A stretch of DNA of 64,000 nucleotides from Thermodesulfobacteriota bacterium (GTDB lineage: Bacteria > Desulfobacterota > Binatia > Bin18). Each line of letters begins with the position of its first letter. The first letter of the stretch is position 1. The stretch lies in the NCBI GenBank assembly GCA_964291405.2, contig OZ219926.1, positions 1,216,001 to 1,280,000 of the forward strand, given 5' to 3'. Shown here piece by piece: positions 11,999-38,502 of this stretch. The notes beneath the pieces are model-generated. The model had not been told where the DNA came from. It did no database searches and saw only the letters and a list, made by a program, of their open reading frames with translations. Both the position numbers and the translations under genes were made by a program.

Positions 11999-12126
11999 CG
12001 TTGAAATCTCCTTTTGACATTCGCTCCCGTTTGGCAGGATAATACTGACCAGTCAGCACCGGAACGCTCCAGGTCAGCTTAGGACGATCACCCAGGCAAC
12101 GGCAAGAGCCGTGTAGCACAGGAGGG

Positions 12127-13233: not shown

Positions 13234-13281
13234 CCAAAAAGCTGAACGACGTGGTTCATGACCGCGTAGAGGAGGCGCATC

Positions 13282-14220: not shown

Positions 14221-15626
14221 GTCGGACGCCGTGTATGCCAGGTCGTGCTCTGCTCGTAGGCATACGCCAGGCGCAGGACCGTCGCTTCCTCAAATGGCCG
14301 TCCGACAATTTGGAGCCCGACCGGCAGACCGTCTTGTGTAAACCCGCACGGCACTGAAATGGCGGGCAGGCCGGTCATATTGAACGGTCGAGTTGCCCGA
14401 GCGATATGGGCGGCAACGGGGAATTCCTTGTCGCCTATGGTGACGGTCGGCTGGTCTATCCTGCTAGCCGCCAGGACGGTTGTCGGCGTCACCAACGCGT
14501 TGACCTGGCCGAGCAGGTCAAGCATCTCCTGGCGTAACAGCGACCGGAAGCGTTGGGCCTTGAGATATTGCGCGGCCTGCACGCAAGCGCCGAGCAACAG
14601 CCGGGTGCGCACGTCAGCGCCATAGTCCTGGCTGCGAGTTTGCGCAGTCCGGGCATGAATCTCGTACGCCTCCGCCGCAATGATAGCGGTCGAGCTGGCA
14701 ATCACATGCTGAATGCTGGGGATGGAGACGGCTTCGACTGTCGCCCCCAAGTCAGACAGATGCTGTATGGCGGCCTGCACGCTCTCCCGGACTGCCGGCT
14801 CAATATCGTCAAAAAAATACTCCTGCGGCACACCGAGACGGAGCCCTCGGATGTCCTCCTTCAGGGCCGCCGTATAATCCGGCACCGCCGCCGTGCTGGC
14901 GGTCGGGTCGTTGGGGTCGGGGCCGGCGATGGCGTGCAGAAGTATGGCAGCATCGGCAACCGTTCTGACCATAGGGCCGACATGATCGCACGAATGGCTC
15001 AGCGGATAGACCCCGAACCGACTCACCCGCCCATACGTCGGTTTGAGACCCACGATGCCGCTGAGCGAGGCCGGGATACGGACCGAACCACCCGTATCTG
15101 TCCCGAGCGTCCCCATGGCCAGTCCGGCCGCCATGGCCACCGCCGAGCCGCCGCTCGATCCACCGGGAAGACGCGTGTGGTCCCACGGGTTGCGGGGGGT
15201 GCCGTAGTGCGGGTTGAGCGAGGTCCCGCCCCAGGCGAACTCGTGCATATTGAGTTTCCCCAGCAGAACCGTGCCGGCCTGCCTGAGTCGGGTAACAACC
15301 GTGGCATCGCTGTCCGCGATATGGTCGGCCATGATTTTTGAGCCGCAGGTCATGCGCACGCCCTTGACCGCAAACAGGTCCTTGAGCGCGATGGGAATGC
15401 CGTGGAGCGGACCTCGATATTGCCCGTGCGTAATTTCCTGTTCCGCGCTACGCGCCGCGGCCAGCGCTCCATCGCCGAGGATAGTAAGATATGCCAGGTA
15501 TTCGTCGTTCAGCCGCTCAATCCGGTCAAGATAAGCCTGGGCTACTTCTACGGGTGAGACTTCTTTCTTTTGGATGAGAGGCGCTAACTCGGCAATGCTC
15601 GTAAAGGCCAACGCTTCAGTCTTCAT
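14217..15626 (-). CDS. Amidase-signature family enzyme (GatA/AtzE-like)
   Basis: GPLHGIPIALKD, GGSSGGS, GTDTGGSVRIPA (Lys-cisSer-Ser triad). Confidence 0.92.
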   Translation of the reverse strand: MKTEALAFTSIAELAPLIQKKEVSPVEVAQAYLDRIERLNDEYLAYLTILGDGALAAARSAEQEITHGQYRGPLHGIPIALKDLFAVKGVRMTCGSKIMADHIADSDATVVTRLRQAGTVLLGKLNMHEFAWGGTSLNPHYGTPRNPWDHTRLPGGSSGGSAVAMAAGLAMGTLGTDTGGSVRIPASLSGIVGLKPTYGRVSRFGVYPLSHSCDHVGPMVRTVADAAILLHAIAGPDPNDPTASTAAVPDYTAALKEDIRGLRLGVPQEYFFDDIEPAVRESVQAAIQHLSDLGATVEAVSIPSIQHVIASSTAIIAAEAYEIHARTAQTRSQDYGADVRTRLLLGACVQAAQYLKAQRFRSLLRQEMLDLLGQVNALVTPTTVLAASRIDQPTVTIGDKEFPVAAHIARATRPFNMTGLPAISVPCGFTQDGLPVGLQIVGRPFEEATVLRLAYAYEQSTTWHTRRPT

Positions 15627-24751: not shown

Positions 24752-25405
24752 TCAGTGCGGCGAGATGGCCATCGCCATCATGACCGACCGCTCAATTTCG
24801 GCGATCACGCTACCGACTTCGTGACCGATCAGGTCCATCTTGCGCAACTGCTCAATACGGGGAGTGGCCCGTTCGAGTTCCCCGGCGGTGAAGATGTCGC
24901 GCAGGAAACCGGCAGCGTCGACCAAACAGATCATGGCCACATCCCTGGGGTCGGGGATATCATCGGACAGCAACACATCCGAAATCCGCAGTCTGACCTC
25001 GCGTTCGACGCGCCCGTCAATCGTCGGATAGCGTCGCGCCCGGAAGACCCACAGGAATTTCTTGTCCTGGGACTCCAGAATGCCACGTTCAATCAAACTG
25101 GCCAGGGCCTGCTGCCGGATTTCGGTCGTATCCTGGCCGGCCAGGGTTTCTATCCAGCCCCTGGTATCCTTGGGCTGACTGGAGTTCGTAATATGTGCCA
25201 GAGCCTGATCGAGAATCGGATTTCCGGTCGGTGTCGTGTCGAGACAGGTGAGGTGCTCGAGGTCGGTATCAATGCGGTTGGCAAAGGCCAGGTCCATCAG
25301 CACCGCACCGGCGAGGATGTATTCCATCGCCCCGCCCCGGGTTGGCAGGAATGACCCGTCGTCGTCCAGTATCAGCAGCATGATCTCTTCGGCAAAGGTC
25401 AGCAT
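24752..25405 (-). CDS. GPP34 / GOLPH3-like protein
   Basis: LTFAEEIMLLILDD, GAVLMDLAFANRI, PTG.PILD, L.ERGIL...KFLWVF...RYP. Confidence 0.8.
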   Translation of the reverse strand: MLTFAEEIMLLILDDDGSFLPTRGGAMEYILAGAVLMDLAFANRIDTDLEHLTCLDTTPTGNPILDQALAHITNSSQPKDTRGWIETLAGQDTTEIRQQALASLIERGILESQDKKFLWVFRARRYPTIDGRVEREVRLRISDVLLSDDIPDPRDVAMICLVDAAGFLRDIFTAGELERATPRIEQLRKMDLIGHEVGSVIAEIERSVMMAMAISPH

Positions 25406-26303: not shown

Positions 26304-27530
26304 ATGCGTATGGACAACGGAATTCTATCAGGACTGCGTGTGATTGACTGCGGGACCTATGTTGCCGGGCCGGCCTCGACGACCATCATGTCGGATTTCG
26401 GTGCCGAGGTATTGAAGATCGAGCGCCCGCAGGGCGGAGACCTCTATCGCTCCATGTCGGATTTACCGGGATTTGCCAAGGCAGACCTCAACTGGGGCTG
26501 GATTCTGACCAGTCGGAATAAGAAGAGCGTCGCTCTCGACCTGGCTTCACCCCAGGGCAGAGAAGTGCTCATTCGGCTGATCAAGACCGCGGACGTGTTT
26601 GTCTCCAACTACCAGCATCCGCTGCTCGAAAAGTTCCGGCTGACCTGGAAAGACCTTCAGCCGGAAAACGATCGGCTCATCTATGCCCATCTGAGCGGCT
26701 ACGGAGATGAAGGCGAAGATGCCGACGCGCCCACGTATGACGCGCTGGCCTATTGGGCGCGCTCGGGCCTGATGATGAGCGTTGTGGGCATGGACGGCAC
26801 ACCGGGCGGCCCGCGTCCGGGCATGGGCGACCACCCGACCTCGGTATCCCTGTTTAGCGCGATTATGCTCGGCCTGTATCAGCGCGAACGTACCGGACGG
26901 GGATTGAAAGTCGGGACTTCGTTACTGGCTAGCGGGGCCTGGGCCAACGCCTGCGACCTCCAGGCAAAATTCTGTAACGCCACCTTTCCGGAACGCGACG
27001 AAGACGGCACACCGCCAAACCCGTTAGCCGCCGGCTATCGGAGTCGTGACGGCAAAGCCTTCCTGGCCATCCTGCTCGACCCCGACAAGGAACTCCCCAA
27101 TCTGTGCAAGGCCCTCGGCCAGGCCGAACTGGCTACCAACCCGCTGTTTGCCACCAACGAGGCCAGGGCGGAGAACGCGGCGGCCCTCTTTGCCATTTTA
27201 CAGGGCCAGTTTGAAACGCGGGACCTCGATGAGTGGCGAGTGCTGTTCAAGCAGGCCGACATCAAATGGGCGCCTCTACCCGTGCGGGACGAAGTGGTCG
27301 AAGACCCCCAGATGCGGGCCGCCGGCGCATTCGTGGACATGGAGTACCCTGGGCACGGCAAGCTGACGACCGTCAACAGCCCCATTTTCACGACTGACGG
27401 TGAAAAGCGAACGCCAACCCCGGCCCCGCAGTTGGGCGACCATACCAGCGAAATCCTGCGCGACCTAGGGTATGACGAAGCGGCCATAGCCGCGCTGGTA
27501 CGTGACGGCATAGCGGCAGTGGGCGGGTGA
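26304..27530 (+). CDS. CaiB/BaiF family III CoA transferase
   Basis: LSGLRVID, GP, GAEVLKIE, RNKKSVALDL, YD, GDH, APQLGDHT. Confidence 0.92.
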   Translation: MRMDNGILSGLRVIDCGTYVAGPASTTIMSDFGAEVLKIERPQGGDLYRSMSDLPGFAKADLNWGWILTSRNKKSVALDLASPQGREVLIRLIKTADVFVSNYQHPLLEKFRLTWKDLQPENDRLIYAHLSGYGDEGEDADAPTYDALAYWARSGLMMSVVGMDGTPGGPRPGMGDHPTSVSLFSAIMLGLYQRERTGRGLKVGTSLLASGAWANACDLQAKFCNATFPERDEDGTPPNPLAAGYRSRDGKAFLAILLDPDKELPNLCKALGQAELATNPLFATNEARAENAAALFAILQGQFETRDLDEWRVLFKQADIKWAPLPVRDEVVEDPQMRAAGAFVDMEYPGHGKLTTVNSPIFTTDGEKRTPTPAPQLGDHTSEILRDLGYDEAAIAALVRDGIAAVGG

Positions 27531-27544
27531 CTTCGGCCGGTAGC

Positions 27545-27577
27545 TGTCGGATTACGCCTGTGGCTCATCCGGCCTAC
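27545..27577. repeat. GTAG-type REP copy (island left edge)
   Basis: TGTCGGATTACGCCTGTGGCTCATCCGGCCTAC; same family as the unit at 6683-6715. Confidence 0.7.
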
Positions 27578-27597
27578 GGGACTGGGGGGGAGGAATC

Positions 27598-27864
27598 GTG
27601 CAATACGTCTATCCATGCGACCTCACCCCTGATGTCGAAGAGGGCGAAGGATACGTCGTGACCTTCCCGGACGTTCCCGAGGCCATCACCGGCGCACGAA
27701 CCAAAGAGGAGTCTCTTATTCTGGCCGAGGATGCCCTAGCTGTCGCGCTCGGCGCATACGTCGAGAACCGTGAAGACATTCCAATCCCAAGCACGGCCGT
27801 AGACGGCCAAGTTTTGGTCGCCCTCCCATCCATCGTTGCCGCCAATTCTCCGGTCAGTCGGTAA
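27598..27864 (+). pseudogene. hicB: HicB family antitoxin, C-terminally truncated, no hicA nearby
   Basis: YVVTFPDVPEAITGA.T.EE....AEDAL...IP.PS; ends just after VAA, where the HTH domain normally begins. Confidence 0.7.
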
Positions 27865-27884
27865 GCCGCAGGCGGACAACGTCA

Positions 27885-30800
27885 ATGCCTGGAACGAACA
27901 CAAAACTGACAACCGCAGTCGAAGACTACCTGACCGACCTCCGCCGGATACGGGCCTCGGGCGGGGCGACCGGCGAGCGGTCGTACTATCCGGCGCTGTC
28001 CGCCCTGCTCAACGCCGTGGGTACAACCCTGAAACCCAAGACGTTCTGCGTGGCCGAACTCGCAGCCCAAGGGGCGGGCCATCCCGACTTCGGGCTCTAC
28101 ACGGCCAAGCAAGTGCAGAAAGGCCAGCCGAAAGAAGGCCAAGTCCCGGAACGCGGTGTGGTCGAAGTAAAATCCGCCAGTGATAATGCCTGGCTGACCT
28201 CAGAGTCGGCCCAAGTCAGCCGCTATTGGGACCGCTACCGTCTCGTGCTGGTCACGAACACGCGCGACTTCGTCCTGTTGGGTGAAGACCCTGCCGGACA
28301 GCCGGCCACGCTCGAAACCTTTCGGCTGGCTGACAATGCCGAAGACTTCGCTCGGCGTCTGGAGCACTCCCGCACCTTTGCCCGCGATATCGGCGCTGGG
28401 CTCGGAGAATATCTCTGCCGCGCCCTGTCCCACCGGGCCGCCCTGACCGAGCCCAAAGACTTGGCATGGTTGCTGGCCTCGTATGCCCGTGACGCCTTAG
28501 CCCGGATTGCGACTGCCGACGACGCCCCACAACTCACCGCCCTGCGTACAGCCCTGGAGGAAGCGCTCGGAGTCCAATTCAAGGGCGACAAGGGCACGCG
28601 CTTTTTCTATTCAACTCTCGTCCAGACCTTATTCTACGGCGTCTTCTCCGCCTGGGTGTTGTGGGCGCGGCAAGTCCCGTCGCCACGGGGCACGTTCAAC
28701 TGGCATGAAGCCGTCTGGCATCTCCGCGCACCAGTACTACGCGCCTTGTTCCAACAGATTTCCGACCCCGGGCGTCTACAACCACTCGGTCTGGTCGAAG
28801 TCCTGGACTGGACCGCGGCGGCCCTCAACCGCGTGGACCGCGTGGCCTTCTTCGCCCGTTTCAACGAGGGCGAAGCCGTGCCCTATTTCTACGAACCCTT
28901 CCTCGAAGCCTTTGACCCCGACCTGCGCAAACAACTCGGCGTCTGGTACACCCCCGCCGAAGTCGTCCGCTACATGGTCGCCCGCGTGGATAAGGCGTTG
29001 AAGGATGACCTGAACATCCCGGACGGGTTGGCTGCGGACAATGTTTACGTCCTGGACCCGTGTTGCGGTACCGGGGCGTATCTGGCCGAAGTGTTACGCC
29101 GGATTGCTGAGAACCTTACCGGCAAAGGCATGGGCGCGCTCGCTGGCGCGCGGGTCAAACAGGCGGCCATCAACCGGGTGTTCGGCTTCGAGATCATGCC
29201 TGCCCCGTTTGTGGTGGCCCACCTGCAAGTCGGCCTGACCATGCAGGACTTGGACGCCCCCCTGGCGGACGACGGCAATGAGCGCCCCGGTGTCTTCCTC
29301 ACCAACGCCCTGACCGGCTGGGAGCCCCACACCACCAAACCCCTCCCCTTCCCCGAACTCGAAGAAGAACGCGACCGGGCCGAGCGGGTCAAGCAGAACA
29401 CCCCGATTCTGGTGATTCTGGGTAACCCGCCCTACAACGGCTTTGCCGGCATGGCCGTAGACGAAGAGCGGGTATTGTCGGAAGCCTACCGCGTGACCAA
29501 GCGGGTACGGCGGCCTGAAGGCCAGGGGTTGAACGATCTGTACGTGCGTTTCTTCCGTATGGCGGAACGCCGGATTGCCGAGAAGACCGGGCAAGGGGTG
29601 GTGTGTTTCATCTCCAACTATTCGTGGTTGGATGGGTTGTCGTTTACCGGGATGAGAGAGCGGTATCTGGAAGTGTTTAACGCCATTCGGATTGATTGTC
29701 TCAACGGCGATAAATACAAGACCGGCAAGGTTGCACCGGACGGGACACCCGACCCGAGTATTTTTTCCACGCCCAGTGACCCGGTAGGGATACAGGTGGG
29801 GACGGCTATTGCGACGCTGGTACGCAAGGCCAACCATGCCCCGGCTGAAACTATTGGCTTTCGGCATCTGTGGGGGCAGACGAAACGGGAGGAACTGTTA
29901 GAGACAGCGGAGGCAGAGCCAGCGACGCTCTACGACGCTATCGAGCCCGTACTGCCGCTGGGGTTGCCATTGGTCCGAACGGCGGTCAGTAAGGACTATT
30001 TCGACTGGCCAGCGCTGCCTGAACTGTTCCCAGCCTCATTTCCTGGAGTGCAGACTGGTCGTGATACGTTTCTCGTTGATATCGATCTTGACCGGCTCAA
30101 GGAGCGTGTCAACGATTACTTCAATACATCGTTGTGGCATGAAGAGATCGCGCGGCGCTATCCGCGTGTGATGACGGACACGGCACGGTTCGATGCACGG
30201 AGAGTGCGCGACACGCTGCTCACGCGTGGCGGTCCAGACGAGGCTGGCTTCGTCCGCTACGCCTATCGACCGTTCGATAATCGGTGGCTGTATTGGGAAG
30301 CAGAAACGAAGCTGCTACGCGAGAAAAGTCCCCGCTACCCGCGGCAAGTGTTCGAGGGGAATAAGTTTATTGAAGCACGCGAGCGGGAAACCAAAGAAGA
30401 CTTTTCACGGGGAACTCTGGTTCGAGGCTTGGCTGATAATTTTGGCAATGGGTTTTCGAGCTTCTTCCCTATGTGGCTCTACGACGACGGGATCAGAAGC
30501 AACGGCGACAGCACACGCCGCGTCAATCTTTCGGGAAAGGCCCAACGATGGCTCAATCATCTTGGCATGGGCGTGGAGGACTTGTTCCATCATATCTTAG
30601 CCGTCCTGCACGACCCCAATTACCGTGAAGCCAACGCCGACGCTCTGCGCATGGACTGGCCGCGTATCCCACTCCCCGGCTGGCCCCTTCCTGGGAGCGC
30701 GGGCATCTTGCCCGCCTCCGACGCAACGAATGCACTCGCCCAATCCGTAGCGCGTGGACGTGAGCTCGCCGCCCTGCTTGACCCGGATACGCCCGTGCCC

Positions 30801-31229
30801 GGCGTGACAACCGGAACCCTCCGCCCGAAGGTCGCTGCTATTGCCGTACCCGCTACGGTGGACGGACGGAACATGATCGGAGACGATTTCGCACTGACCG
30901 CTGGGTGGGGACACTACGGCACGGGTGATGCCGTTATGCCCGGCCAAGGGCGGGTGGTCGAACGCGATTACACGGCGGACGAACGCACTGCTTTGGGGGA
31001 TGCTCCCGGCGTGCTTGGTCAGACCACGTTCGACATTTACCTGAACGGCAACGCCTACTGGCGCAATGTTCCGGCTGCTGTCTGGCGCTACAAGCTGGGC
31101 GGCTATCAGGTGCTCAAGAAATGGTTGTCATATCGGGAACGGGCCGTGCTGGGGCGGGCGCTGTTGCCGGAGGAGGTGTGGTATTTTGCGGAGGTGGCGC
31201 GGCGGATTGGGGCGATATTGGATCGATAA
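27885..31229 (+). CDS. Single-chain restriction-modification enzyme (Type IIG-like, N6-adenine methyltransferase, Type ISP-like C-terminus)
   Basis: N-terminal HPDF...VEVK nuclease motif, YYTP-like WYTP, LDPCCGTG, GNPPY, YRPFD, GGYQVLKKWLSYR. Confidence 0.85.
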   Translation: MPGTNTKLTTAVEDYLTDLRRIRASGGATGERSYYPALSALLNAVGTTLKPKTFCVAELAAQGAGHPDFGLYTAKQVQKGQPKEGQVPERGVVEVKSASDNAWLTSESAQVSRYWDRYRLVLVTNTRDFVLLGEDPAGQPATLETFRLADNAEDFARRLEHSRTFARDIGAGLGEYLCRALSHRAALTEPKDLAWLLASYARDALARIATADDAPQLTALRTALEEALGVQFKGDKGTRFFYSTLVQTLFYGVFSAWVLWARQVPSPRGTFNWHEAVWHLRAPVLRALFQQISDPGRLQPLGLVEVLDWTAAALNRVDRVAFFARFNEGEAVPYFYEPFLEAFDPDLRKQLGVWYTPAEVVRYMVARVDKALKDDLNIPDGLAADNVYVLDPCCGTGAYLAEVLRRIAENLTGKGMGALAGARVKQAAINRVFGFEIMPAPFVVAHLQVGLTMQDLDAPLADDGNERPGVFLTNALTGWEPHTTKPLPFPELEEERDRAERVKQNTPILVILGNPPYNGFAGMAVDEERVLSEAYRVTKRVRRPEGQGLNDLYVRFFRMAERRIAEKTGQGVVCFISNYSWLDGLSFTGMRERYLEVFNAIRIDCLNGDKYKTGKVAPDGTPDPSIFSTPSDPVGIQVGTAIATLVRKANHAPAETIGFRHLWGQTKREELLETAEAEPATLYDAIEPVLPLGLPLVRTAVSKDYFDWPALPELFPASFPGVQTGRDTFLVDIDLDRLKERVNDYFNTSLWHEEIARRYPRVMTDTARFDARRVRDTLLTRGGPDEAGFVRYAYRPFDNRWLYWEAETKLLREKSPRYPRQVFEGNKFIEARERETKEDFSRGTLVRGLADNFGNGFSSFFPMWLYDDGIRSNGDSTRRVNLSGKAQRWLNHLGMGVEDLFHHILAVLHDPNYREANADALRMDWPRIPLPGWPLPGSAGILPASDATNALAQSVARGRELAALLDPDTPVPGVTTGTLRPKVAAIAVPATVDGRNMIGDDFALTAGWGHYGTGDAVMPGQGRVVERDYTADERTALGDAPGVLGQTTFDIYLNGNAYWRNVPAAVWRYKLGGYQVLKKWLSYRERAVLGRALLPEEVWYFAEVARRIGAILDR

Positions 31230-31247
31230 CAAGCTATATCGTTCTTA

Positions 31248-32120
31248 TTAACGAAACGACTCGGGTCTTACGATCTCGCACATAAAGCGAATAGCGTCTT
31301 CGACGCGAGTTTTTATCGAGGCCAATTGCTGTGGCGAGAATATTCCGGCAGGACCATGCGCGCCAGAATTTAGTTCTTTGAAGAGGATAACGACGTTATC
31401 AATGTTAGCGTTAATGAAGTCTTCAAGTTCGTTATTTGCACTATCGTTTCGATCAAGGCAGTAATGGATTTTGGCGCGGCGGGTGGGAGTCCCTTTATCT
31501 GTGGTTTGGCAGTTAGGAAAGCGAGCAAAAACATCGTCATCTGGTGCCTTGGTATCAAGAATCTCCGTAATGATCTCTCGGGTACTGATACAAAAATGGC
31601 GGGCAGCATCGGGATTCTCAGGATTGAGTGCGTAGATAGCACCATGCCAGCGGCGGTCCAAATCCGGGGAGATGTGTGCTAACCCATCGGCGATCAGAGT
31701 GTTCTTGAGATCATCATCAGAAACTTGGGAATCAGCAGTATCGTCTAGGAGGTCGTTGAGGACGGTTACGCCGTTGGTCGCTTCCTGTTCGGCAAGATCC
31801 GAAAGGAAGGGGTTGGCTCCAGCAGTGTCCAACCGCTTGTACGCAGTGGAGAGTGTGGATACTGATTTGGAGAGCGCGGTATAGCGGACGGTGTTGGTCT
31901 GCTGAGCGAAGCGTTGTAGTGCAGATTGTAGGCGGGTTCGGTTAGCTCGTACGCGTGCATTGTGGGTGCGTACATCCCGGTTGTAAGCGTCAATCGCCTG
32001 TTTCCTCTTGGTGTTGTATTGTCGGATCTCGTTATTGAGCTTTTGAACATTCTGGCGCTGCTTAGCCTGCGCCTGTCGCAGCATGGAACGGTATTGGGAC
32101 GGGGTTACGCGGCGGGCCAT
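31248..32120 (-). CDS. Coiled-coil protein with a putative pPIWI-associating-type (HEPN-like) nuclease domain
   Basis: NPDAARHFCISTREI...APD...PTRRAKIHY...LNSGAH pattern; AT-richer than the flanks; family assignment from memory. Confidence 0.55.
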   Translation of the reverse strand: MARRVTPSQYRSMLRQAQAKQRQNVQKLNNEIRQYNTKRKQAIDAYNRDVRTHNARVRANRTRLQSALQRFAQQTNTVRYTALSKSVSTLSTAYKRLDTAGANPFLSDLAEQEATNGVTVLNDLLDDTADSQVSDDDLKNTLIADGLAHISPDLDRRWHGAIYALNPENPDAARHFCISTREIITEILDTKAPDDDVFARFPNCQTTDKGTPTRRAKIHYCLDRNDSANNELEDFINANIDNVVILFKELNSGAHGPAGIFSPQQLASIKTRVEDAIRFMCEIVRPESFR

Positions 32121-32213
32121 AATAATATCCCTCGCAGATAATATAAGCTTGCTAAATGTAATATATTGTATTCCTAGACTCAAGACACACAGTATATAGT
32201 ATCAGTGTTGCCC

Positions 32214-32257
32214 AGCCCGTAGGTCGGCTTACGCTGCGCTAAGCTGACCTACGGGCT
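32214..32257. repeat. GTAG-type REP hairpin (may also act as a terminator)
   Basis: AGCCCGTAGGTCGGCTTA-CGCTGCGC-TAAGCTGACCTACGGGCT; 18-bp stem with one G-T pair. Confidence 0.75.
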
Positions 32258-32262
32258 ATCGA

Positions 32263-32700
32263 TTATCCCAAATGGACAATTTCGACATCGCCCCATTGCC
32301 TTTCGAGATATTCTGCAACCAGCCGGCGGTGGCAGTGCTCGGGCTTGTCCTCACTGCATAACAGGCATCCATTGGAGATTGTCCTTTTTATGCCCTTCTT
32401 ACTAATACGCCTCTTGTCCATAAGGGCCAAAAACTGGCGCTCATATGTTTCCCAGTCCTTGTGCTCTTTACGATAGGCGTCCAGCATCTCTTTGGTAGGG
32501 GCAAGGTCCGGCAGATGAACGTACTTCATCCGGCAGATTTTTTTCAGAAAATATGCAAGGTCATCTCTTTTGGCGAATCCCGCCAGTTGGGAGATATTGT
32601 TCAGTCGGACATCAACCAAACGTTTTGCGCCGGACTCGCGGAGGAGTTCAAAGAAAGTGGCAGCGGATTTTTTCGTGAAACCAATAGTATATACTTTCAA
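32263..32700 (-). CDS. DUF488 family protein (short)
   Basis: YTIGFT, LVDVR, LLCSEDKPEHCHR; TTG start overlapping the upstream stop by 4 bp. Confidence 0.88.
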   Translation of the reverse strand: MKVYTIGFTKKSAATFFELLRESGAKRLVDVRLNNISQLAGFAKRDDLAYFLKKICRMKYVHLPDLAPTKEMLDAYRKEHKDWETYERQFLALMDKRRISKKGIKRTISNGCLLCSEDKPEHCHRRLVAEYLERQWGDVEIVHLG

Positions 32701-33332
32701 AGCACACTCTCCCGCTGGTTGGCACTGGCCTGGGATTTTTCGTCAGTATAGGCCACTTTCTGCGCCTGACGGGTAAGAGCGTCAGCGATGACCTCTGCTC
32801 TGGAGGTGAACATATCGCCATCATGGGGCAGTTTGAACAGGTCCAACAGCCGGTCCATAGCAGCGGAGTGATTTTCTATTCTGCCGTCGGCCAGGATATG
32901 CTCAACTGCAACGCCGCGTTCTGAAAGTATCCGGGCAACCAACAGCGTACGGTGGCATTCCAAGGGTTCTTTCTCGGTACACATCAGGGCAATGCGGCGT
33001 TCATTGGCGTCTCGCATGACACGTCTGAGACCGTCATCAAACAGGGCCGTATTCGCTACCCGGTCGTACCGGACTCTCCCCTTAGTATCGTAGCACGAGC
33101 GGTCGGAAGGTCGTCCGCCCAGTTCGCGACCCAGAAACACATACCCGATTCCCATGCCCTCCAGCATTCTGTTCAGACTTTCGGAGTTGAAGTACGAAAT
33201 ATGTCGGCTGTACGGGGTCGAGCGAACATCAACGACTTCAGCCACGTCGTGCCGTAGCAGCAGTTGGATGAACGTTTCCGGCGAATGGTTGGAGTGGCCG
33301 ACCGTGAACACCGTATATTGGGTTGCGCTCAT
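32697..33332 (-). CDS. DUF488 family protein (long)
   Basis: FTVGHS, VDVRSTP, ELGGR, LMCTEKEPLECHR. Confidence 0.88.
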   Translation of the reverse strand: MSATQYTVFTVGHSNHSPETFIQLLLRHDVAEVVDVRSTPYSRHISYFNSESLNRMLEGMGIGYVFLGRELGGRPSDRSCYDTKGRVRYDRVANTALFDDGLRRVMRDANERRIALMCTEKEPLECHRTLLVARILSERGVAVEHILADGRIENHSAAMDRLLDLFKLPHDGDMFTSRAEVIADALTRQAQKVAYTDEKSQASANQRESVL

Positions 33333-33347
33333 TGTGTTATTCCTCCG

Positions 33348-34025
33348 TCAAGGCTCGATAATGGCGGCAATGAGTTTGTAAGCATAGCCGTGAAAGGGCT
33401 CGCCAAGGCTGACCGTGAGAAACCTCTCTCCAATTTGATAACTACCATCAGGTTGTCGCAGATACTGCCGCGTACAAGTAGGATCTGTAACCCGAAGCCA
33501 ATAAGCTATTCCATTATACCTAAACCGGCCTTGCACGCTTCGTCGGTAGCTACCCAGTCGGGAAACATATAATTCTAGCCTGTCAACCTTGATGAGGCGT
33601 AGCGAGTGATTCAGCGATCTAGCGTCACGGATTGGAACTCTGTCGTTCATTCCGTTTGCGGAACTACGTCCGTTAATCCAAAGCGGCGCTACTGGGTCAG
33701 TGAATTGCGACAGTTCATTCGGAGTGACACTGCGAATCTTTTGCCAGTAATATTCTGGATCAAGCAACCAATTCTCTTGTTGGTAATCTTCTGGTTGCGC
33801 ATTGAGAATAGGCACGTCAATAACGTCAAGAACGCGAGGATCACTCCCGTCCTCATACTGCCGCTCCTCCTCCGATACTTCCTGACTCTCCCGATCGCTT
33901 ACAGGGCGAATCCAATCTCTAACCTGCCCATCCTCTCGAATCTCTTTGCCTGCTATACAGCGGCCACTCATCTTGCGGGAGTTTGCAAGGCACACGATAC
34001 GCTTGATGATCTTAGTAGCCATCAT
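33348..34025 (-). CDS. Dual OB-fold-type protein associated with DUF488
   Basis: IVCLANSRK.SGRCIAG, WIRPVS, QENW, VTDP, TVSLGEPF..YAYKLIAAII; family assignment from memory. Confidence 0.6.
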   Translation of the reverse strand: MMATKIIKRIVCLANSRKMSGRCIAGKEIREDGQVRDWIRPVSDRESQEVSEEERQYEDGSDPRVLDVIDVPILNAQPEDYQQENWLLDPEYYWQKIRSVTPNELSQFTDPVAPLWINGRSSANGMNDRVPIRDARSLNHSLRLIKVDRLELYVSRLGSYRRSVQGRFRYNGIAYWLRVTDPTCTRQYLRQPDGSYQIGERFLTVSLGEPFHGYAYKLIAAIIEP

Positions 34026-34092
34026 TTTCCTTCTGTAAGATGATCTGACACTATTATACAAGCGATTCTACAGACACAACTCCGCTAGCCCC

Positions 34093-34122
34093 GTAGGTCG
34101 GATTAGCGGAGGATAATCCAAC
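34093..34122. repeat. GTAG-type REP copy
   Basis: GTAGGTCGGATTAGCGGAGGATAATCCAAC; matches the unit at 6643-6672. Confidence 0.7.
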
Positions 34123-34176
34123 ATTTCCGTTGCTTTTGTACTTGTCTGTCGGACACTTTTATTTGCACGGTCAAAG

Positions 34177-35430
34177 TCAGCGTCGGCGTGAAGTTCCCGG
34201 CAGTAATAGCTGTTGGGGAAATGCAATCCGGTCTGTGGGACTGACCCGTCTCAGCATCCGCGAGCGTACCGTGCCATCTGGACGGAGAATATCAATTTCC
34301 CTTTCTCGAAAAAGTTCGAGGACGACGGAATCAAGGTCTGAGAAGCGAGCGGCGGTTCTATTCGCAAACATATGCCGCATCGTATCTATGGTGACAGGCT
34401 CTTCAGACGCCAAACTGAAAAGCTCGTCGGGCATTGAGTTGAGCAGTTGCCTGCGCATAGCCTCGGCGTCCAGTTCTTCAAAATGGAACAGTGGAAGTGT
34501 TTCTGAGTTCAAAGCGTCCCATCCCAGCATGTCGAAGCCACCGGGACCATAGTGCTCGAATTTATTGTAATTGTTCCAGTGACATTGGATCATCACATCA
34601 CGTGCTGTGGGGTGTCTCGAAAGATGAAGAAACCACAGGGCGCGCCGCGACTGTCTGGGCCGAATAAAGAACGGCGTATCATAGGTCGCTTTCGTTGCGT
34701 TACGAATGTGTCCCCGGAGTACTCTTTGAACGAGTGCTCTTCCGCCATCACCATTACGGAGTTGGATCAAGTCGGATATTCGTTGTTCTGTCAGTTCGAG
34801 TGGAGTGACCATTCGGACAAATTCCGGCGTCTCCGCAAGAAAGTTGGTGAGGGCGTCTGCCGCAAACGTCAGAATAATCTCCGCAGCAGGTAGCTCACTG
34901 AAAATCCGAGCGATGAGGCTGATTTCCACCTGTGAAAAGCCGCACTGGTCCAGCAGAAAAAGTGAGCGGCCAGCTCTTGGTTGGCGACGGCGAATTTCGG
35001 TGATAATCCCGTCCACCACATCTTCAAACGGACTGTTACGGACAACGATCTTTTCGTTATCCACCTGATAGCCGCGTTCGTCCAAGACTTTTTGGAGGTG
35101 GTTTGTGTGAGCAGCTTCTACATCAACAAAATAATATTTGAAGTCGAAATGAAGGGTTTTGGTACGATCCTGGCTCAGCCTCTCTATCGCGGCTTCAGAT
35201 TCCTCAAGCATGATTAAAGGCGTGCCGGACACGATCTCGTCGCCATCCAGAAACGTCCCTCCGCCTGCGAAGCCATCAATAAGATCGAGCTTGAATTGAT
35301 CGCGAGAAGGGTTGATGCTCAGCCTGTCGAAATAAGCACGAAGATAACTGCGTAAGACATCAAGTTTCGCCTTGCTGTGTTCTTCTATCGAAGGCGGGGG
35401 TTCATCAGGATGCCATTTGAAGTCTGCCAT
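34177..35430 (-). CDS. tcmP: Three-Cys-motif partner protein (methyltransferase-like fold)
   Basis: EHSKAKLDVLRSYL, IDGFAGGG, SGTP, LLDQCG; overlaps the DUF5131 gene by 26 bp. Confidence 0.8.
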   Translation of the reverse strand: MADFKWHPDEPPPSIEEHSKAKLDVLRSYLRAYFDRLSINPSRDQFKLDLIDGFAGGGTFLDGDEIVSGTPLIMLEESEAAIERLSQDRTKTLHFDFKYYFVDVEAAHTNHLQKVLDERGYQVDNEKIVVRNSPFEDVVDGIITEIRRRQPRAGRSLFLLDQCGFSQVEISLIARIFSELPAAEIILTFAADALTNFLAETPEFVRMVTPLELTEQRISDLIQLRNGDGGRALVQRVLRGHIRNATKATYDTPFFIRPRQSRRALWFLHLSRHPTARDVMIQCHWNNYNKFEHYGPGGFDMLGWDALNSETLPLFHFEELDAEAMRRQLLNSMPDELFSLASEEPVTIDTMRHMFANRTAARFSDLDSVVLELFREREIDILRPDGTVRSRMLRRVSPTDRIAFPQQLLLPGTSRRR

Positions 35431-36166
35431 CTTCCCCCGCCTCCAAATACCTGGGCACCCCGTTGTACTCGATTCCCTCTAGTATGCGTCCCTTTGCTTT
35501 CGGCGTCGGTCCACCCCACTGCTTGAAAAAGAAGGGCACGCCCTCCTGCTCGCAGCGATCCCGTACCTCAATGACCCACTCGGGCCGCATGGGCCGGGCC
35601 TTGGGGCCGCTTTCTCCGCCGACGATGACCCAGGCGATCCCCTGGAGGTCTAGATCCCCTATGGGGCCGAGCAATGGCTCGATGGAAAGAAAGCGCGTGG
35701 AGATGGGAGCCTGCTGAAGATGCCGGACCCTGGCGGTCGCCGTGTGGTCTTCAACCGACACTCCGCACCAAATATGCCGTGGGGTAGGACGCGATTGATA
35801 GCGGCGCTGGACATATCTTTTCATGAGCGTACTCCGCTTCGTCAATATCTGGAAAATATGCCGATCAGCCGCTTCCATGATGTCGAACACTTGGTCGATA
35901 AATGTTGTGGGAACCCGCTTGTGGAAGAGATCACTCATGGAATTTACAAAGATCATGCGTGGGCGTTTCCACGTCAGTGGTTGGCTCAGGCGCTCAGGCC
36001 GTAGCGTTAAATCGAACCCGTGTTCAAAGGGGTGTCCGGGAACGCCCCGAAAGCGCTCGGAGAAGCGCTCAGCGTAACAGTGGTCACAGCCCCGCGTGAT
36101 CTTGGTACAGCCTGTCACCGGGTTCCAGGTTGCGTCCGTCCACTCGATTGTAGATTTATAGCTCAT
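35405..36166 (-). CDS. DUF5131 / phage Gp37-Gp68 family protein (radical-SAM-like)
   Basis: IEWTDATWNPVTGCTKITRGCDHCYA (Cx6Cx2C), VNSMSDLFH, QILTKR, EPLL, GGESG, FFFKQWGG. Confidence 0.92.
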   Translation of the reverse strand: MSYKSTIEWTDATWNPVTGCTKITRGCDHCYAERFSERFRGVPGHPFEHGFDLTLRPERLSQPLTWKRPRMIFVNSMSDLFHKRVPTTFIDQVFDIMEAADRHIFQILTKRSTLMKRYVQRRYQSRPTPRHIWCGVSVEDHTATARVRHLQQAPISTRFLSIEPLLGPIGDLDLQGIAWVIVGGESGPKARPMRPEWVIEVRDRCEQEGVPFFFKQWGGPTPKAKGRILEGIEYNGVPRYLEAGEDGRLQMAS

Positions 36167-36182
36167 GGTGACACTACGTTAC

Positions 36183-36205
36183 GTTATGCGCACGGCGTGC
36201 GCTAC
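36183..36205. repeat. Short GTAG-type REP-like palindrome (second family)
   Basis: Reverse complement reads GTAGCGCACGCCGTGCGCATAAC. Confidence 0.45.
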
Positions 36206-36338
36206 TTGGTTGTCTCAGCATCGGTATCAACTCATAGGCGAATATAAAGCGAAAGTAAAGCTCGAACCTGATGTGAATAACGTCCCAGCCTCGGCAGGGC
36301 GAATCGCGACGATATTGGTGACAACCGATACGCCAGCA

Positions 36339-36371
36339 GTATCGGATTATGCCTCCGGCTCACCGATCTAC
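36339..36371. repeat. Degenerate GTAG-type REP copy
   Basis: GTATCGGATTATGCCTCCGGCTCACCGATCTAC; aligns with 27545-27577 and 6683-6715. Confidence 0.65.
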
Positions 36372-36492
36372 AGGACTAATCCATTTTGTTGCAGCTCAGC
36401 GTCGATTTGAGCCTGATTGTATGTTTCAGTAAACTCACGGACAAAATAGGTTTACTCTCTGCTCGGAGGACGAGCAAGAAAGGAGCGCAACC

Positions 36493-37044
36493 TTGGAACG
36501 AAGAATCCGTATACTCGCCCTGAGTCTGATCCTCCTATTCTGTCTCGGTCTCGTCAATCTCTCCTTCTCTGATGACGCGATTCGTCTGGAAAGCTGGCGG
36601 CATAGACCGAATGAGGGCAACTTTGCCCAAGGGATTGCCGGAGTCTACCTCATCCGCCACCTCACAGACGAGGGCACGACGAATTCCTTCCGATTGATTT
36701 CCTTAACTGCAGAGGGGAACTGGGCCAGCACCCATTCCGGTCAGCACGACATCTTTGGCTCCGCCCGATTCAGCGACCAGCACGGGGTGTGGGCGCGGTC
36801 GGGCTGGCGGGAAATTACCGCGGAGGTGGTCGATTTCAACCTAGACGCCTTGACCGGAGCGCATACCGATATCGTGCGCGTCCGCTATGTGGTGCAATTC
36901 AGCAAAGATTTACAGTCCGTCACCGGTACGCAGAGGGGGCGGGTCTTTCCGCTTGATCAAGACCCGCTGGACCCGGAGGCGGTACCGGCCATGGAGTTTG
37001 ACTCGATATTCTCAGGACAGCGCGTGACAGTCGAGTCCGAGTAG
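36493..37044 (+). CDS. Hypothetical exported protein
   Basis: AAGGAG RBS, TTG start, basic plus hydrophobic signal peptide, beta-rich mature region. Confidence 0.7.
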   Translation: MERRIRILALSLILLFCLGLVNLSFSDDAIRLESWRHRPNEGNFAQGIAGVYLIRHLTDEGTTNSFRLISLTAEGNWASTHSGQHDIFGSARFSDQHGVWARSGWREITAEVVDFNLDALTGAHTDIVRVRYVVQFSKDLQSVTGTQRGRVFPLDQDPLDPEAVPAMEFDSIFSGQRVTVESE

Positions 37045-37196
37045 CAACGGCGTGTGTGACGCCGAAGGGATCTGTCGTAAGCGGTGTGTCGATACCGTCT
37101 AGAGCTCGGGTGCAGGAATAGCCTATTCGGCGCTCATCGAGTTCTCCCCGGATCGGTATGGACGGTCGTAGCTCCTGACGATTATGTTGTTCTGGT

Positions 37197-37527
37197 TCAG
37201 TGCTGAGGCAAGCTCCGCAAACGATAGCGATGGGGTTCCACGACACAATAGCATTGCTTGAGATATTCTTCCGTATGTTCTCTCAAGGGGCGTTGTAGCT
37301 GTTGATGGACATCCTCAAAATCGGTGGAGATTATGTGGCATAGGCCACACAGGCTTTCACATCAGGTCAATATCAAGGTCAGGGTAATACTTTTCACTAA
37401 TCTCCTTAAAGGGAATGCCTTCTTGGGCCAGTTCCAGGACATGCTCAACTAATATCCGTGTCCCTCTGATATACGGTTTTCCGAAATGGACCTGTGAGTC
37501 TACACTGAGACGGTCACGATACTTCAT
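37197..37527 (-). pseudogene. Decayed DUF433 antitoxin plus remnant of a DUF5615/PIN-like toxin
   Basis: ATG 37527 with AGGAGG RBS: MKYRDRLSVDSQVHFGKPYIRGTRILVEHVLEL...YYPDLDID, frameshift to DVKACVAYAT; downstream fragment LREHTEEYLKQCYCVVEPHRYRLRS. Confidence 0.75.
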
Positions 37528-37617
37528 AGAATGTGTATCCTCCTGGGCGTCAGTCTGAGATACCTGAGCACATCTTTGAAATAAACACTTACTTCACCAC
37601 TTCTCATTCAACCACAC

Positions 37618-38502
37618 TTAACGGGGGTCGTTGGGAAGCGCGCGCTGGGTAAATCCCACTACCATGCCAAAGGCTTGCTCCGGCCCGAGAATGACGGTGT
37701 CTGCGCCGTCCGGTTCGGGTCGGAGTTGCTTGTCTCTCAGAAAATCCCGGGCCTGGCCGAGGTCCGCGGTCTTGAATATCAGGGAGTAAATGCCCTCGCC
37801 GTTTTGCTCCAACTCACGGCCTTCCGGGCTGATCGTGGAAAGGGGCTGGGCCAGTTCTACGACCGTGTCTTCTCCAACAGCCACAAAGGCACTCTGCTTG
37901 CGATCCTCAGTGTGCTCCTCGTGGAGCAGGGTCCCGTCCAGAATGTCGCAATACAGCCGCTTGGCCGCGGACAGGTCCCTGACGACGACACCGATGTGCG
38001 AGGCACGCTGGATGCCGAGCGGATGCTGGCGCCAAGGGTCGCTTGACCAGCCCGGTTCCAGCCGCGGGTCGGCGATGTAGTCGCCGGACAGGGCAAACTC
38101 CAGTTGGCCGGGTGTCTGTCTCGGATGCGTCCAAATGGCCGCCGTATCGTACGGCGGCTTTACCTCTTTGCCGACAAGGTTATAGAGCCGCAGGCCGGCT
38201 GTATCGAGCCGGGCAGAGATGGCCGCAACATCGTCTACATACCAGGCAATGGAGTGGAAGTGCTGCCCGAAACGATCGTGAAATTTTTTCACCGACGGGT
38301 TTTTGAGGTTCTCCACGCGGGCGGGCATCATCGGTTCCATGATGACGTCTCCGATGGCAATCAGGGAGGCGTTACGGCCGGCCAGCTCTTCATAGCCGTT
38401 ATAGAAGCGCGTGACCGAGAACACGTCGTCATACCACCGGTCAACGGCTTCGAGGTCGTCCACAACATGGGTGAGATGAAACAGTTTGCCTATGGTGAAC
38501 AT
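37618..38502 (-). CDS. VOC / glyoxalase family protein (two domains)
   Basis: FHLTHVVDDL, FHSIAWYVDD, SHIGVVVRDL, VELAQP. Confidence 0.85.
   Translation of the reverse strand: MFTIGKLFHLTHVVDDLEAVDRWYDDVFSVTRFYNGYEELAGRNASLIAIGDVIMEPMMPARVENLKNPSVKKFHDRFGQHFHSIAWYVDDVAAISARLDTAGLRLYNLVGKEVKPPYDTAAIWTHPRQTPGQLEFALSGDYIADPRLEPGWSSDPWRQHPLGIQRASHIGVVVRDLSAAKRLYCDILDGTLLHEEHTEDRKQSAFVAVGEDTVVELAQPLSTISPEGRELEQNGEGIYSLIFKTADLGQARDFLRDKQLRPEPDGADTVILGPEQAFGMVVGFTQRALPNDPR

Follow-up and report, generated by a model that had tools for sequence, protein, structure and literature searches.

The five co-oriented genes analysed here, all on the minus strand of a 64,000-nt stretch of DNA (the window, whose positions are used throughout), were judged, at about even probability, to be two mobile modules, separable from each other, that came to lie next to one another within a low-GC island of about 10 kb between metabolic genes. 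Module A consists of DUF5131 and TcmP, and module B of DuOB followed by a long and a short DUF488 paralog (the trio). Both are already catalogued candidates: PADLOC lists PDC-M30/M41 and PDC-M45 separately, and all five proteins matched its candidate-system models. The first-pass annotation had taken the cluster as unnamed and expected no named PADLOC match, which proved incorrect; in the window, PDC-M45 is joined to PDC-M30/M41. Its broader description, of uncharacterised modules directed at nucleic acids and sited next to a restriction gene within a small island of low GC, was supported, and literature searches found no demonstrated function for either module. The features are listed in Table 1.

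Table 1. Features of the five-gene block and its surroundings (window positions).
Feature	Position	Strand	Evidence or remark
DUF5131 (phage Gp37/Gp68 family), radical-SAM-like, module A gene 1	35405..36166	-	Pfam PF07505, E 3.8e-95
TcmP (three-Cys-motif partner protein), module A gene 2	34177..35430	-	TIGR04474, E 1.5e-56, over cutoff
Short hairpin, half copy of REP-like motif CCGACCTACGGG	34080..34110	-	In 154-nt TcmP-DuOB spacer
DuOB (dual OB-fold), 224 aa, module B gene 1	33348..34022	-	Pfam PF22557, E 4.8e-73
Long DUF488 paralog, 211 aa, module B gene 2	32697..33332	-	PF04343, E 6.4e-22
Short DUF488 paralog, 145 aa, DUF488-N3a 'active' subclade, module B gene 3	32263..32700	-	PF04343, E 1.3e-25
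REP-like 18+18-nt palindrome closing module B	32214..32257	.	Inverted repeat I4, 94% complementary
pP_pnuc_1 'predicted pPIWI-associating nuclease' domain orphan, outside both modules	31248..32183	-	PF18165, E 5.5e-41
Type IIG / type ISP-like restriction-methylase, convergent	27885..31229	+	Type_ISP_C, E 1.1e-40

The five open reading frames were recovered as first described (the third spanning 33348–34061), with a 26-nt overlap (35405–35430) between the DUF5131 and TcmP genes and a 4-nt overlap (32697–32700) between the DUF488 genes, the TTG start of the short paralog overlapping the stop of the long one. The start of DuOB was placed at the ATG at 34022 and not at the TTG at 34061, giving a product identical to the database protein P0001. 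A REP had been reported between the two sub-modules; the spacer does hold a half copy (34090–34105) in its short hairpin, the fold of the whole spacer not being significant (z −1.7), but the full 44-nt palindrome lies instead beyond the short DUF488 gene and folds at −32.6 kcal/mol (z −4.47).

A caveat that the sub-modules may be independent was borne out by a five-gene co-occurrence count over the best 80 of the genome loci (at least 550) that encode DuOB relatives. Among these best 80 loci, the long DUF488 gene lies directly downstream of DuOB in all 80, and 76 hold the complete trio, while TcmP was found in one (phmmer and a 44-sequence family profile) and DUF5131 in two (L001 and L045). 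The trio is therefore self-sufficient, and a single five-gene system does not hold as a general rule, 79 of the 80 closest DuOB loci being without TcmP and 78 without DUF5131. The spread over mobile elements also differs: of 50,697 phage records, 181 hold DUF5131 and none DuOB; of 72,556 plasmids, 438 hold DUF5131 and 19 DuOB.

The independence of the modules is not complete: the one five-gene locus among the 80 (L001) carries a 4,023-bp copy 84.8% identical to the block in the window. The shared segment (window 32253–36261, L001 7763–11782) has its edges at the ends of the outermost genes, is flanked by unrelated DNA, and includes the outer stem of the spacer hairpin; the five genes are rarely juxtaposed, and their block was transferred together. 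Between the two copies dS was 0.29 for DUF5131, 1.27 for TcmP, 0.65 for DuOB, and 0.26 and 0.33 for the DUF488 genes, with every dN/dS within 0.05–0.21. Since dS spreads more than 4-fold along the block, its parts have different histories. In L045, a solo DUF5131 gene directly follows the trio. The longest contigs in the DuOB and TcmP match lists are of equal size (26,813; 8,886; 6,503), which may hint at more five-gene blocks.

Like the catalogued PDC-M30 and PDC-M41, the module A pair consists of two overlapping genes, TcmP and DUF5131, and the PADLOC B models matched DUF5131 at E about 1e-101 (PDC-M30B, 3.5e-102; PDC-M41B, 7.1e-101). TcmP passed the NCBIfam family cutoff; its matches to the PADLOC A models were modest (E 4.1e-18 for PDC-M30A, and 3.5e-13), so that the pair may belong to M30 or to M41. 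The Cx6Cx2C motif described in DUF5131 was located as CTKITRGCDHC at residues 20–30. The NCBIfam model rSAM_mob_pairA scored 76.9 bits, under its cutoff of 355, and a Pfam search gave no Radical_SAM or SPL match to DUF5131. The RadicalSAM.org tables place DUF5131 and spore photoproduct lyase in one megacluster (5-2 versus 5-3); the lyase and other DNA-acting radical SAM enzymes have CX3CX2C, whereas DUF5131 has Cx6Cx2C and, unlike the lyase, is partnered with TcmP.

PDB and Pfam searches did not verify from sequence the methyltransferase fold proposed for TcmP, although a motif-I-like DGFAGGG is present. The PDB search with the single protein and the profile gave no meaningful match (sole row a Rho GTPase-activating protein, E 0.46), and a weak Pfam methyltransferase match appeared in only 1 of 44 TcmP family members; homologues in Gordonia phages are labelled 'methyltransferase'. 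TcmP carries a C-terminal GMT-like wHTH, and GMT-wHTH matches 39 of the 44 family members. Natural DUF5131-TcmP fusions of 662 aa were found (3 among the 120 TcmP relatives listed), and in Gordonia phage ThankyouJordi the pair has the integrase on one side and the immunity repressor on the other.

Module B matched the PADLOC models PDC-M45A (DuOB, E 2e-92), PDC-M45B (long DUF488, E 4.5e-80) and PDC-M45C (short DUF488, E 1.1e-74; also PF22751, E 2.3e-12) nearly end to end and in the same order. PDC-M45 is a catalogue entry only, with a three-gene order identical to that in the window; a literature search found no mention of it in the main text of papers, and in the available part of a cold-seep study it is not among the eight candidates tested. 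In the favoured reading the trio is a self-contained, translationally coupled cassette, and its stop/start overlaps speak for its acting as a unit.

The AF2 model of DuOB (pLDDT 89.9) is all-beta, and its best PDB fold matches, all weak, are the tandem-OB DNA binders HIN-200, RPA, CST and TEBP, no fold match of any model reaching E ≤ 1e-3. HIN-200, RPA and CST share two consecutive beta-barrels with the model (E 5e-3, TM about 0.33) but no sequence similarity with DuOB (7–14% identity). Invariant polar residues were found at S15, K17, C22, W37, R39, Q81, E83, N84, D109, W115, D127, T179, E208, Y215 and K216; the conservation of this set suggests a specific pocket or catalysis, unlike the tandem-OB DNA binders. 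Identity across phyla is 53–75%, which is unusually conserved for defence genes. Among 44 longer DuOB proteins there were 27 fusions to RecQ helicase, 5 to DUF488, 2 to ABC/SMC ATPases and 2 to spore-photoproduct-lyase-like (SPL-like) radical SAM domains. Through the last of these, DuOB is linked to the megacluster of radical SAM enzymes that includes DUF5131.

The two DUF488 paralogs were matched to each other by hhalign with a probability of 98.2%, and both keep the C.E.....CHR motif that had been read from them (CTEKEPLECHR in the long and CSEDKPEHCHR in the short paralog), and its Cys, Glu, Cys, His and Arg never vary among the 60 and 65 homologues aligned, respectively. The top fold match of the short paralog model (pLDDT 89.2) was a DUF442 putative phosphatase (probability 0.96, TM 0.43, E > 1e-3), followed by other weak matches to diphthine synthase and protein tyrosine phosphatases. 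The abasic-site crosslinking analogy of the first-pass annotation was not sustained, the fold likeness pointing weakly instead to Cys-phosphatase or rhodanese-phosphatase chemistry, and SRAP-like crosslinking was set aside since these weak matches favour chemistry on phosphates. Cys-dependent DNA-end processing by DUF488-type enzymes has reportedly been predicted in computational work on conflict systems, from which the Pfam families DuOB and DUF488-N3a/N3i presumably stem; the weak DUF488 fold matches agree with that prediction. In enterobacterial and Acinetobacter plasmids, mSLOG+DUF4326 replaces the long DUF488. In the available part of PMC9503650, DUF4326 is assigned to the rhodanese-phosphatase superfamily and predicted to process terminal ribose phosphates.

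The putative nuclease noted downstream of the five genes carries the pP_pnuc_1 domain and is absent from all 80 related loci (best 80 of at least 550). The facing restriction-modification gene is the type IIG / type ISP-like restriction-methylase (PADLOC REase_MTase_IIG, E 9.1e-94); in another locus (L004) the trio has a type IIG gene in the same convergent position, 71% identical in amino acids to that of the window, and this gene is co-inherited with the trio there. In the same survey (best 80 of at least 550 loci), Hma components accompany the trio in 10 loci, in two of which (L017 and L066) it lies directly between HmaB and HmaC, and a SLFN_AlbA_2/HATPase_c_4 gene is immediately upstream in 20. 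The trio also adjoins genes for type I restriction components and OLD-type ATPases, as well as TA genes. In the available part of the source (bioRxiv 10.1101/2024.09.26.614923), PDCs are defined as candidates found again and again inside known defence loci, and the Hma embedding fits that definition. Nevertheless, the defence role of the trio is uncertain, because many immediate neighbours are housekeeping genes (aconitase, adenylate kinase, UvrA, transporters) and the proteins are unusually conserved.

Three other readings were weighed. That the five genes form one restriction-modification-like system, in which DUF5131-TcmP would mark self DNA by a radical-SAM-dependent modification, DuOB would sense whether the mark is there and unmarked DNA would be disabled by the DUF488 enzymes, is distinctly improbable. 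Transfer as a single block between unrelated flanks, the hairpin retained in both copies, the trio followed by a solo DUF5131, the SPL-like fusions and the further blocks that equal contig sizes may suggest all fit such a system, and coupling within the window's own lineage is possible because the 4-kb block co-moves and DuOB fusions to radical-SAM-lyase-like domains exist; the near absence of TcmP and DUF5131 from the closest DuOB loci, the phage records with DUF5131 and none with DuOB, the separate PADLOC models and the uneven dS speak against it.

The trio could also be a DNA repair cassette, end-healing or lesion-processing and not antiviral, which mobile elements and genomes would carry to mend damaged or restricted DNA. 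We consider this unlikely, given its embedding between HmaB and HmaC, the adjoining restriction, TA and OLD-type genes, and a patchy occurrence across phyla and a low-GC island in the window that are typical of accessory, horizontally moved genes; the RecQ and SPL-like fusions, the adjoining UvrA and housekeeping genes, the strong purifying selection and high cross-phylum identity, the small plasmids that carry the trio near partition and transfer genes, and the lack of phage copies of DuOB argue for it. Finally, the displacement of the long DUF488 by mSLOG+DUF4326 in plasmid versions would suit DUF488 enzymes whose substrate is a signal or toxin, either a free nucleotide or a molecule derived from ADP-ribose, with DuOB as the sensor, but this is very improbable: the fusion partners of DuOB are overwhelmingly DNA enzymes (RecQ, SPL-like, SMC/ABC ATPases), and neither the window nor the immediate neighbours scanned showed a gene for an ADP-ribosyltransferase, Macro, NADAR or cyclase protein beside the trio.

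The best reading of the locus thus sets a cassette that would process DNA ends or lesions next to a radical-SAM/partner pair that would modify DNA. Gene content, family membership, linkage statistics, the fusions and the joint transfer of the block were observed, and from these we infer every biochemical step and the defence role. In module A, the winged-helix partner TcmP would target DNA, where the radical-SAM-like DUF5131 may install or remove a base or backbone modification. In module B, the tandem OB-fold of DuOB would bind single-stranded DNA, a DNA end or a lesion and present it to both DUF488 enzymes. These putatively Rossmann-like enzymes with a Cys/Arg motif, akin to Cys-dependent phosphatases of the rhodanese-phosphatase superfamily, would then attach a terminal phosphate or sugar-phosphate group, or take one off, via a cysteinyl intermediate. 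As an accessory to, or a stand-alone partner of, restriction-type defence, the trio may put cut or incoming DNA ends beyond repair or, in the opposite sense, heal the ends of the host.

The locus is an instance of two catalogued candidate kinds of system, and what is new in it is a co-transferred five-gene block together with the fusion partners of DuOB. As the first-pass annotation had described, five co-oriented genes were found as minus-strand ORFs at 32263–36166 of the window (see the table), with the overlaps it had noted between DUF5131 and TcmP (26 nt) and between the two DUF488 genes (4 nt). The pair DUF5131–TcmP is referred to as module A, and the trio of DuOB, long DUF488 and short DUF488 as module B. 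The mechanical DuOB ORF begins at a TTG at 34061; the real start was placed at 34022, because the identical database protein P0001 is 224 aa long. The Cx6Cx2C motif was present in DUF5131 as CTKITRGCDHC, and the motif C.E.....CHR was found in both DUF488 paralogs and was invariant in 60 and 65 homologues. The long and short DUF488 proteins are themselves homologous (hhalign probability 98.2%, 25% identity).

Coordinates and family assignments of the five genes
Gene	Position in window	Strand	Product and best family match
DUF5131	35405–36166	minus	253 aa; PF07505, E 3.8e-95
TcmP	34177–35430	minus	417 aa; TIGR04474, E 1.5e-56, above cutoff
DuOB	33348–34022	minus	224 aa; PF22557, E 4.8e-73
Long DUF488	32697–33332	minus	211 aa; PF04343, E 6.4e-22
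Short DUF488	32263–32700	minus	145 aa; PF04343, E 1.3e-25; DUF488-N3a, E 2.3e-12

The cluster had been taken as uncharacterised in the sense of unnamed, with no named PADLOC match expected; this did not hold, all five proteins matching candidate-system models of PADLOC-DB 2.0. The PDC-M45 A, B and C models matched DuOB (E 2e-92), long DUF488 (4.5e-80) and short DUF488 (1.1e-74) with near full-length coverage, and the three matching genes are contiguous, as PDC-M45 membership demands. DUF5131 matched PDC-M30B (E 3.5e-102) and PDC-M41B (E 7.1e-101), and TcmP matched PDC-M30A (E 4.1e-18) and PDC-M41A (E 3.5e-13). The TcmP-like (A) and DUF5131 (B) genes are adjacent and overlapping, the arrangement of both candidates, and on sequence comparison module A may be either PDC-M30 or PDC-M41. 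Two separate models being matched, PADLOC therefore already handles the five genes as two different candidates. According to the available part of bioRxiv 10.1101/2024.09.26.614923, such candidates are predicted from genes found repeatedly embedded in loci of known defence systems (Hma, RM, BREX, DISARM), and M30, M41 and M45 are not among the eight tested there. No mention of PDC-M45, PDC-M30 or PDC-M41 was found in the main texts of the literature; PADLOC-related and cold-seep supplementary tables may list PDC-M45 or M30. In the accessible portions of the literature the sole mention of DUF5131 found was a table in RadicalSAM.org, and the mentions found of DUF488 included none on function; for TcmP or "three-Cys-motif partner" the gene was merely listed. 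In agreement with the earlier statement that neither the DUF5131/TcmP nor the DUF488-linked modules have a demonstrated function, none was found in the literature.

A DuOB alignment profile scanned against one genome per species gave at least 550 stretches encoding a relative. The best 80 of these, all from MAGs (Chloroflexota/Dehalococcoidia, Binatia, Latescibacterota, Alpha- and Gammaproteobacteria, Acidobacteriota and others), were analysed with 10-kb flanks by phmmer comparison of the window's proteins with all six-frame ORFs. Among these best 80 of at least 550 loci, DuOB was found in 80 and the full trio in 76, and long DUF488 lay directly 3′ of DuOB in every case, being fragmentary in L031 (at a contig end), L037, L048 and L078. 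DUF5131 was found in two of the same best 80 loci (L001 and L045) and TcmP in one (L001), the 44-sequence TcmP profile likewise giving 1/80. Screening of 50,697 phage records detected DUF5131 in 181, TcmP in six (tblastn) and DuOB in none, and 72,556 plasmids contained DUF5131 in 438 cases and DuOB in 19. Phages and plasmids are thus split in the manner of the loci, and therefore the trio needs no DUF5131–TcmP, nor the pair the trio. The caveat of the first-pass annotation that the sub-modules may be independent was borne out by these counts; its proposal of one general five-gene system, for which it had asked for co-occurrence statistics, was not supported, the pair being rare beside the trio in these 80 loci. 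At E ≤ 1e-5, 1,257 relatives of TcmP and 4,432 of DuOB were detected, each representing a 90%-identity cluster.

L001, a locus from a Binatia MAG, has counterparts of all five genes in unchanged order. Positions 32253–36261 of the window and 7763–11782 of L001 were aligned over 4,023 bp with 84.8% identity, and the flanks are unrelated. Protein identity and dS were 96% and 0.29 for DUF5131, 77% and 1.27 for TcmP, 75% and 0.65 for DuOB, 93% and 0.26 for long DUF488, and 95% and 0.33 for short DUF488, with dN/dS of 0.05–0.21 for all five genes. The spread of dS and the low dN/dS thus indicate that the block is a mosaic under purifying selection, its centre older in history than its ends. Judged from these alignments, the five genes are a 4-kb block co-transferred within a narrow lineage. 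In L045 (Rhodothermales) a solo DUF5131 (64.5% identical) lies immediately 3′ of the trio, and here the juxtaposition arose independently. The DuOB and TcmP match lists have equal-sized longest contigs in common (26,813, 8,886 and 6,503 nt), which may represent further five-gene blocks.

The AF2 model of DuOB is all-beta (pLDDT 89.9). Its best fold matches in the PDB were tandem-OB DNA binders (the HIN domains of p202, AIM2 and IFI16, CST, RPA and TEBP), none reaching E ≤ 1e-3; BFVD gave weak LEF-3 and SSB-like matches only, and the ESM Atlas gave matches below 0.9 to unnamed clusters only. The ARPP domain was considered as the identity of DuOB and rejected, since the fold described for it in the available part of PMC9503650 differs. 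DuOB residues that stay unchanged in homologues with as little as 30% identity include S15, K17, C22, W37, R39, Q81, E83, N84, D109, W115, D127, T179, E208, Y215 and K216. A census of fusions comprised 44 longer DuOB-containing proteins (P0244–P0282), of which 27 are full RecQ helicase fusions with DuOB at the C-terminus and one more carries HRDC only. Five are DUF488 fusions (one also with AlbA_2), two are fusions with ABC/SMC ATPases, and two (P0274 and P0276) with a spore-photoproduct-lyase-like radical SAM domain; the rest are one Sipho_Gp157 fusion, five proteins with unknown extensions and one probable artefact.

The short DUF488 was modelled by AF2 as a small Rossmann-like alpha/beta domain (pLDDT 89.2), in which the first motif Cys ends strand 110–114 and CHR starts helix 123–135 (model numbering without Met1). 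Fold comparison with the PDB gave weak matches throughout, the best being to a putative phosphatase of type DUF442 (E 0.03, probability 0.96, TM 0.43), to diphthine synthase and to protein tyrosine phosphatases. These agree with the rhodanese-phosphatase clade in which Burroughs and Aravind reportedly placed DUF488 and DUF4326 in 2023, with a predicted role in DNA-end processing in conflict systems. The Cys-to-Arg spacing of the DUF488 motif is longer than CX5R. Complex prediction for long and short DUF488 with DuOB as partner gave a score of 0.01, which speaks neither for nor against binding. PDB sequence searches with short DUF488, DuOB, DUF5131 and TcmP as single proteins gave no match at E ≤ 1, and PDB profile searches gave chance-level rows only (a LacI regulator, E 0.14; for TcmP a RhoGAP, a Rho GTPase-activating protein, E 0.46).

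For module A, the three cysteines expected of a [4Fe-4S] cluster motif are present in DUF5131 with non-canonical spacing, and they are kept in P0177, a 76% identical DUF5131–TcmP fusion of 662 aa. Such natural fusions account for three of the 120 TcmP relatives listed, P0177 being the one inspected. Among curated radical SAM models, PF04055 did not match DUF5131, and TIGR04471 (rSAM_mob_pairA) scored 76.9 bits, its cutoff being 355. The placement of DUF5131 in the radical SAM superfamily comes from the table of RadicalSAM.org, the available part of which lists it as a subgroup beside spore photoproduct lyase. In TcmP, whose methyltransferase fold is putative, the motif-I-like DGFAGGG shows little or no variation (D52, G53, F54, G56–G58), a weak match to Pfam Methyltransf_31 (E 0.0033) was found in one of 44 members only, and a C-terminal GMT-like wHTH was found in 39 of the 44. 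A phage homologue of TcmP carries the annotators' label "methyltransferase". In Gordonia phage ThankyouJordi (L084, 3492–5359), DUF5131 and a TcmP-like "methyltransferase" gene are convergent and lie between integrase/metalloprotease and immunity repressor genes; the TcmP-like gene points in the same direction as the repressor gene and may therefore be expressed in lysogens. Mycobacterium phage Cracklewink has DUF5131 among its early genes, and none of the neighbours is annotated as methyltransferase or TcmP.

Elsewhere, Hma components were found within 10 kb of the trio in 10 of the best 80 of at least 550 loci, and in L017 and L066 the trio lies directly between HmaB (DUF1156 methylase) and HmaC (HEPN_Swt1 and DUF499 ATPase). 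In 20 of the same best 80 loci, a co-oriented gene for a SLFN_AlbA_2 and HATPase_c_4 protein of about 410 aa lies directly upstream of DuOB (e.g., L045 8739–9968; L020 8384–9598). This protein may be a fourth component of a trio subtype; in P0252 it is fused with DuOB and DUF488. Tandem DuOB duplicates precede the DUF488 pair in seven of the 80 loci (L022, L030, L035, L036, L055, L067 and L070). Housekeeping genes (aconitase, adenylate kinase, UvrA, transporters) are numerous among 108 other non-redundant immediate neighbours surveyed, and the set also includes TA antitoxins, OLD-type AAA_15/21 ATPases, a type I S subunit and transposases. A Rhodovastum plasmid carries the same trio as the window. 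Small Klebsiella and Acinetobacter plasmids (L081 4998–6661; L082 5001–6689) carry a variant, DuOB–DUF488-N3a–mSLOG+DUF4326, in which short DUF488 is 54–56% and DuOB merely 30–32% identical to those of the window, and which in the Klebsiella plasmid adjoins ParA and a NotI-family restriction-modification system. DUF4326 has been placed in the rhodanese-phosphatase superfamily and is predicted to act on terminal ribose phosphates (PMC9503650, available part).

The locus is a small accessory island without tRNA: the G+C content is 0.49–0.58 across most of 31000–37500 and about 0.57–0.64 in the flanks, metabolic genes lie outside 27.6–37.6 kb, and a scan of the whole window gave no tRNA. The nuclease claimed to follow the cluster is an orphan pP_pnuc_1-domain gene at 31248–32183 (minus), whose 311-aa product has an Arg/Gln-rich low-complexity N-terminus and a C-terminal "pPIWI-associating nuclease" domain (E 5.5e-41); a scan of neighbouring ORFs across 19.4–42.7 kb brought up no Argonaute. 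It was rejected as a part of the system, being missing from all 80 related loci and separated by a REP palindrome. The facing R-M gene was likewise recovered as a convergent type IIG/type ISP-like restriction-methylase at 27885–31229 (plus). In L004 a gene 71% identical to it (12004–15621, minus) directly follows the trio in convergent orientation, as in the window, and L001 retains a 59-bp remnant of a restriction-methylase 3′ end (11779–11835). The shared position and the remnant suggest, at the level of sequence, an older block of trio and restriction-methylase into which the pP_pnuc_1 gene was inserted later.

The REP-like motif CCGACCTACGGG gave four matches at ≤1 mismatch against 0.41 expected. 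The REP reported between the sub-modules proved to be a half copy with a modest hairpin in the 154-nt TcmP–DuOB spacer; the full 18+18 palindrome lies 3′ of short DUF488 (32214–32257; −32.6 kcal/mol, z −4.47). The copies at 27569–27580, 32214–32257 and 34090–34105 are at junctions between island modules. An Rfam search of 27000–38000 gave no matches, and promoter and terminator counts were not above those of shuffles. Also seen in the window were a 183-aa ORF without family match at 36493–37044 (plus), whose N-terminus is hydrophobic and by eye resembles a signal peptide, a 56-aa DUF433 ORF without obvious toxin partner at 37357–37527 (minus), and an ORF of the bacterial GPP34 (Golgi phosphoprotein 3) family at 24752–25405 (minus).

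The observations of the first-pass annotation were thus largely correct and its interpretation was supported in part. The preferred reading, which as a whole we hold to be evenly balanced between right and wrong, is that a cassette complete in itself, which processes DNA ends or lesions, lies beside a DNA-modifying pair of radical-SAM enzyme and partner, both modules being mobile; confidence is higher for the two-module anatomy and lower for the chemistry. DuOB would recognise DNA, on which the two Cys-phosphatase-like DUF488 enzymes would then act, and DUF5131 with its partner TcmP would be a radical-SAM pair modifying DNA. Each of the two modules is a candidate for a part in DNA conflict. 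That the trio serves repair rather than defence, as the RecQ fusions and neighbours such as UvrA might suggest, is unlikely beside its occurrence next to Hma components and restriction genes. Action of the trio on free ADPr or nucleotide derivatives would be in keeping with the DUF4326 variant and is the least probable of the alternatives, the fusion partners of DuOB being overwhelmingly DNA enzymes.

A true five-gene restriction-modification-like system, which the block shared with L001 brings to mind, is improbable: in classical restriction-modification a modification enzyme and its cognate nuclease always co-occur, which is not so for these five genes in the 80 loci, and Pfam, NCBIfam and PADLOC models revealed no recognisable nuclease domain in the five proteins. 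It is likewise very doubtful that, in this lineage, host DNA receives an unusual mark from the radical-SAM enzyme under the guidance of the winged-helix protein, with DuOB sorting marked from unmarked DNA and passing unmarked ends to the two Cys-phosphatase-like DUF488 proteins for capping or stripping. If true, the five-gene reading would be a new kind of restriction-modification-like system, leaving invading DNA capped or stripped and so beyond repair or replication.

For now, the locus is an unexceptional example of two catalogued candidates. DUF5131/TcmP and DuOB/DUF488 are widespread, and the window and L001 offer both modules in a compact 4-kb natural construct. Together with the RecQ, spore-photoproduct-lyase-like and DUF488 fusions, the block leads to testable hypotheses of Cys-phosphatase-like chemistry at DNA ends and of radical-SAM chemistry on DNA, and either chemistry, if shown, would be a new enzymatic activity in the prokaryotic repertoire of DNA conflict and repair.
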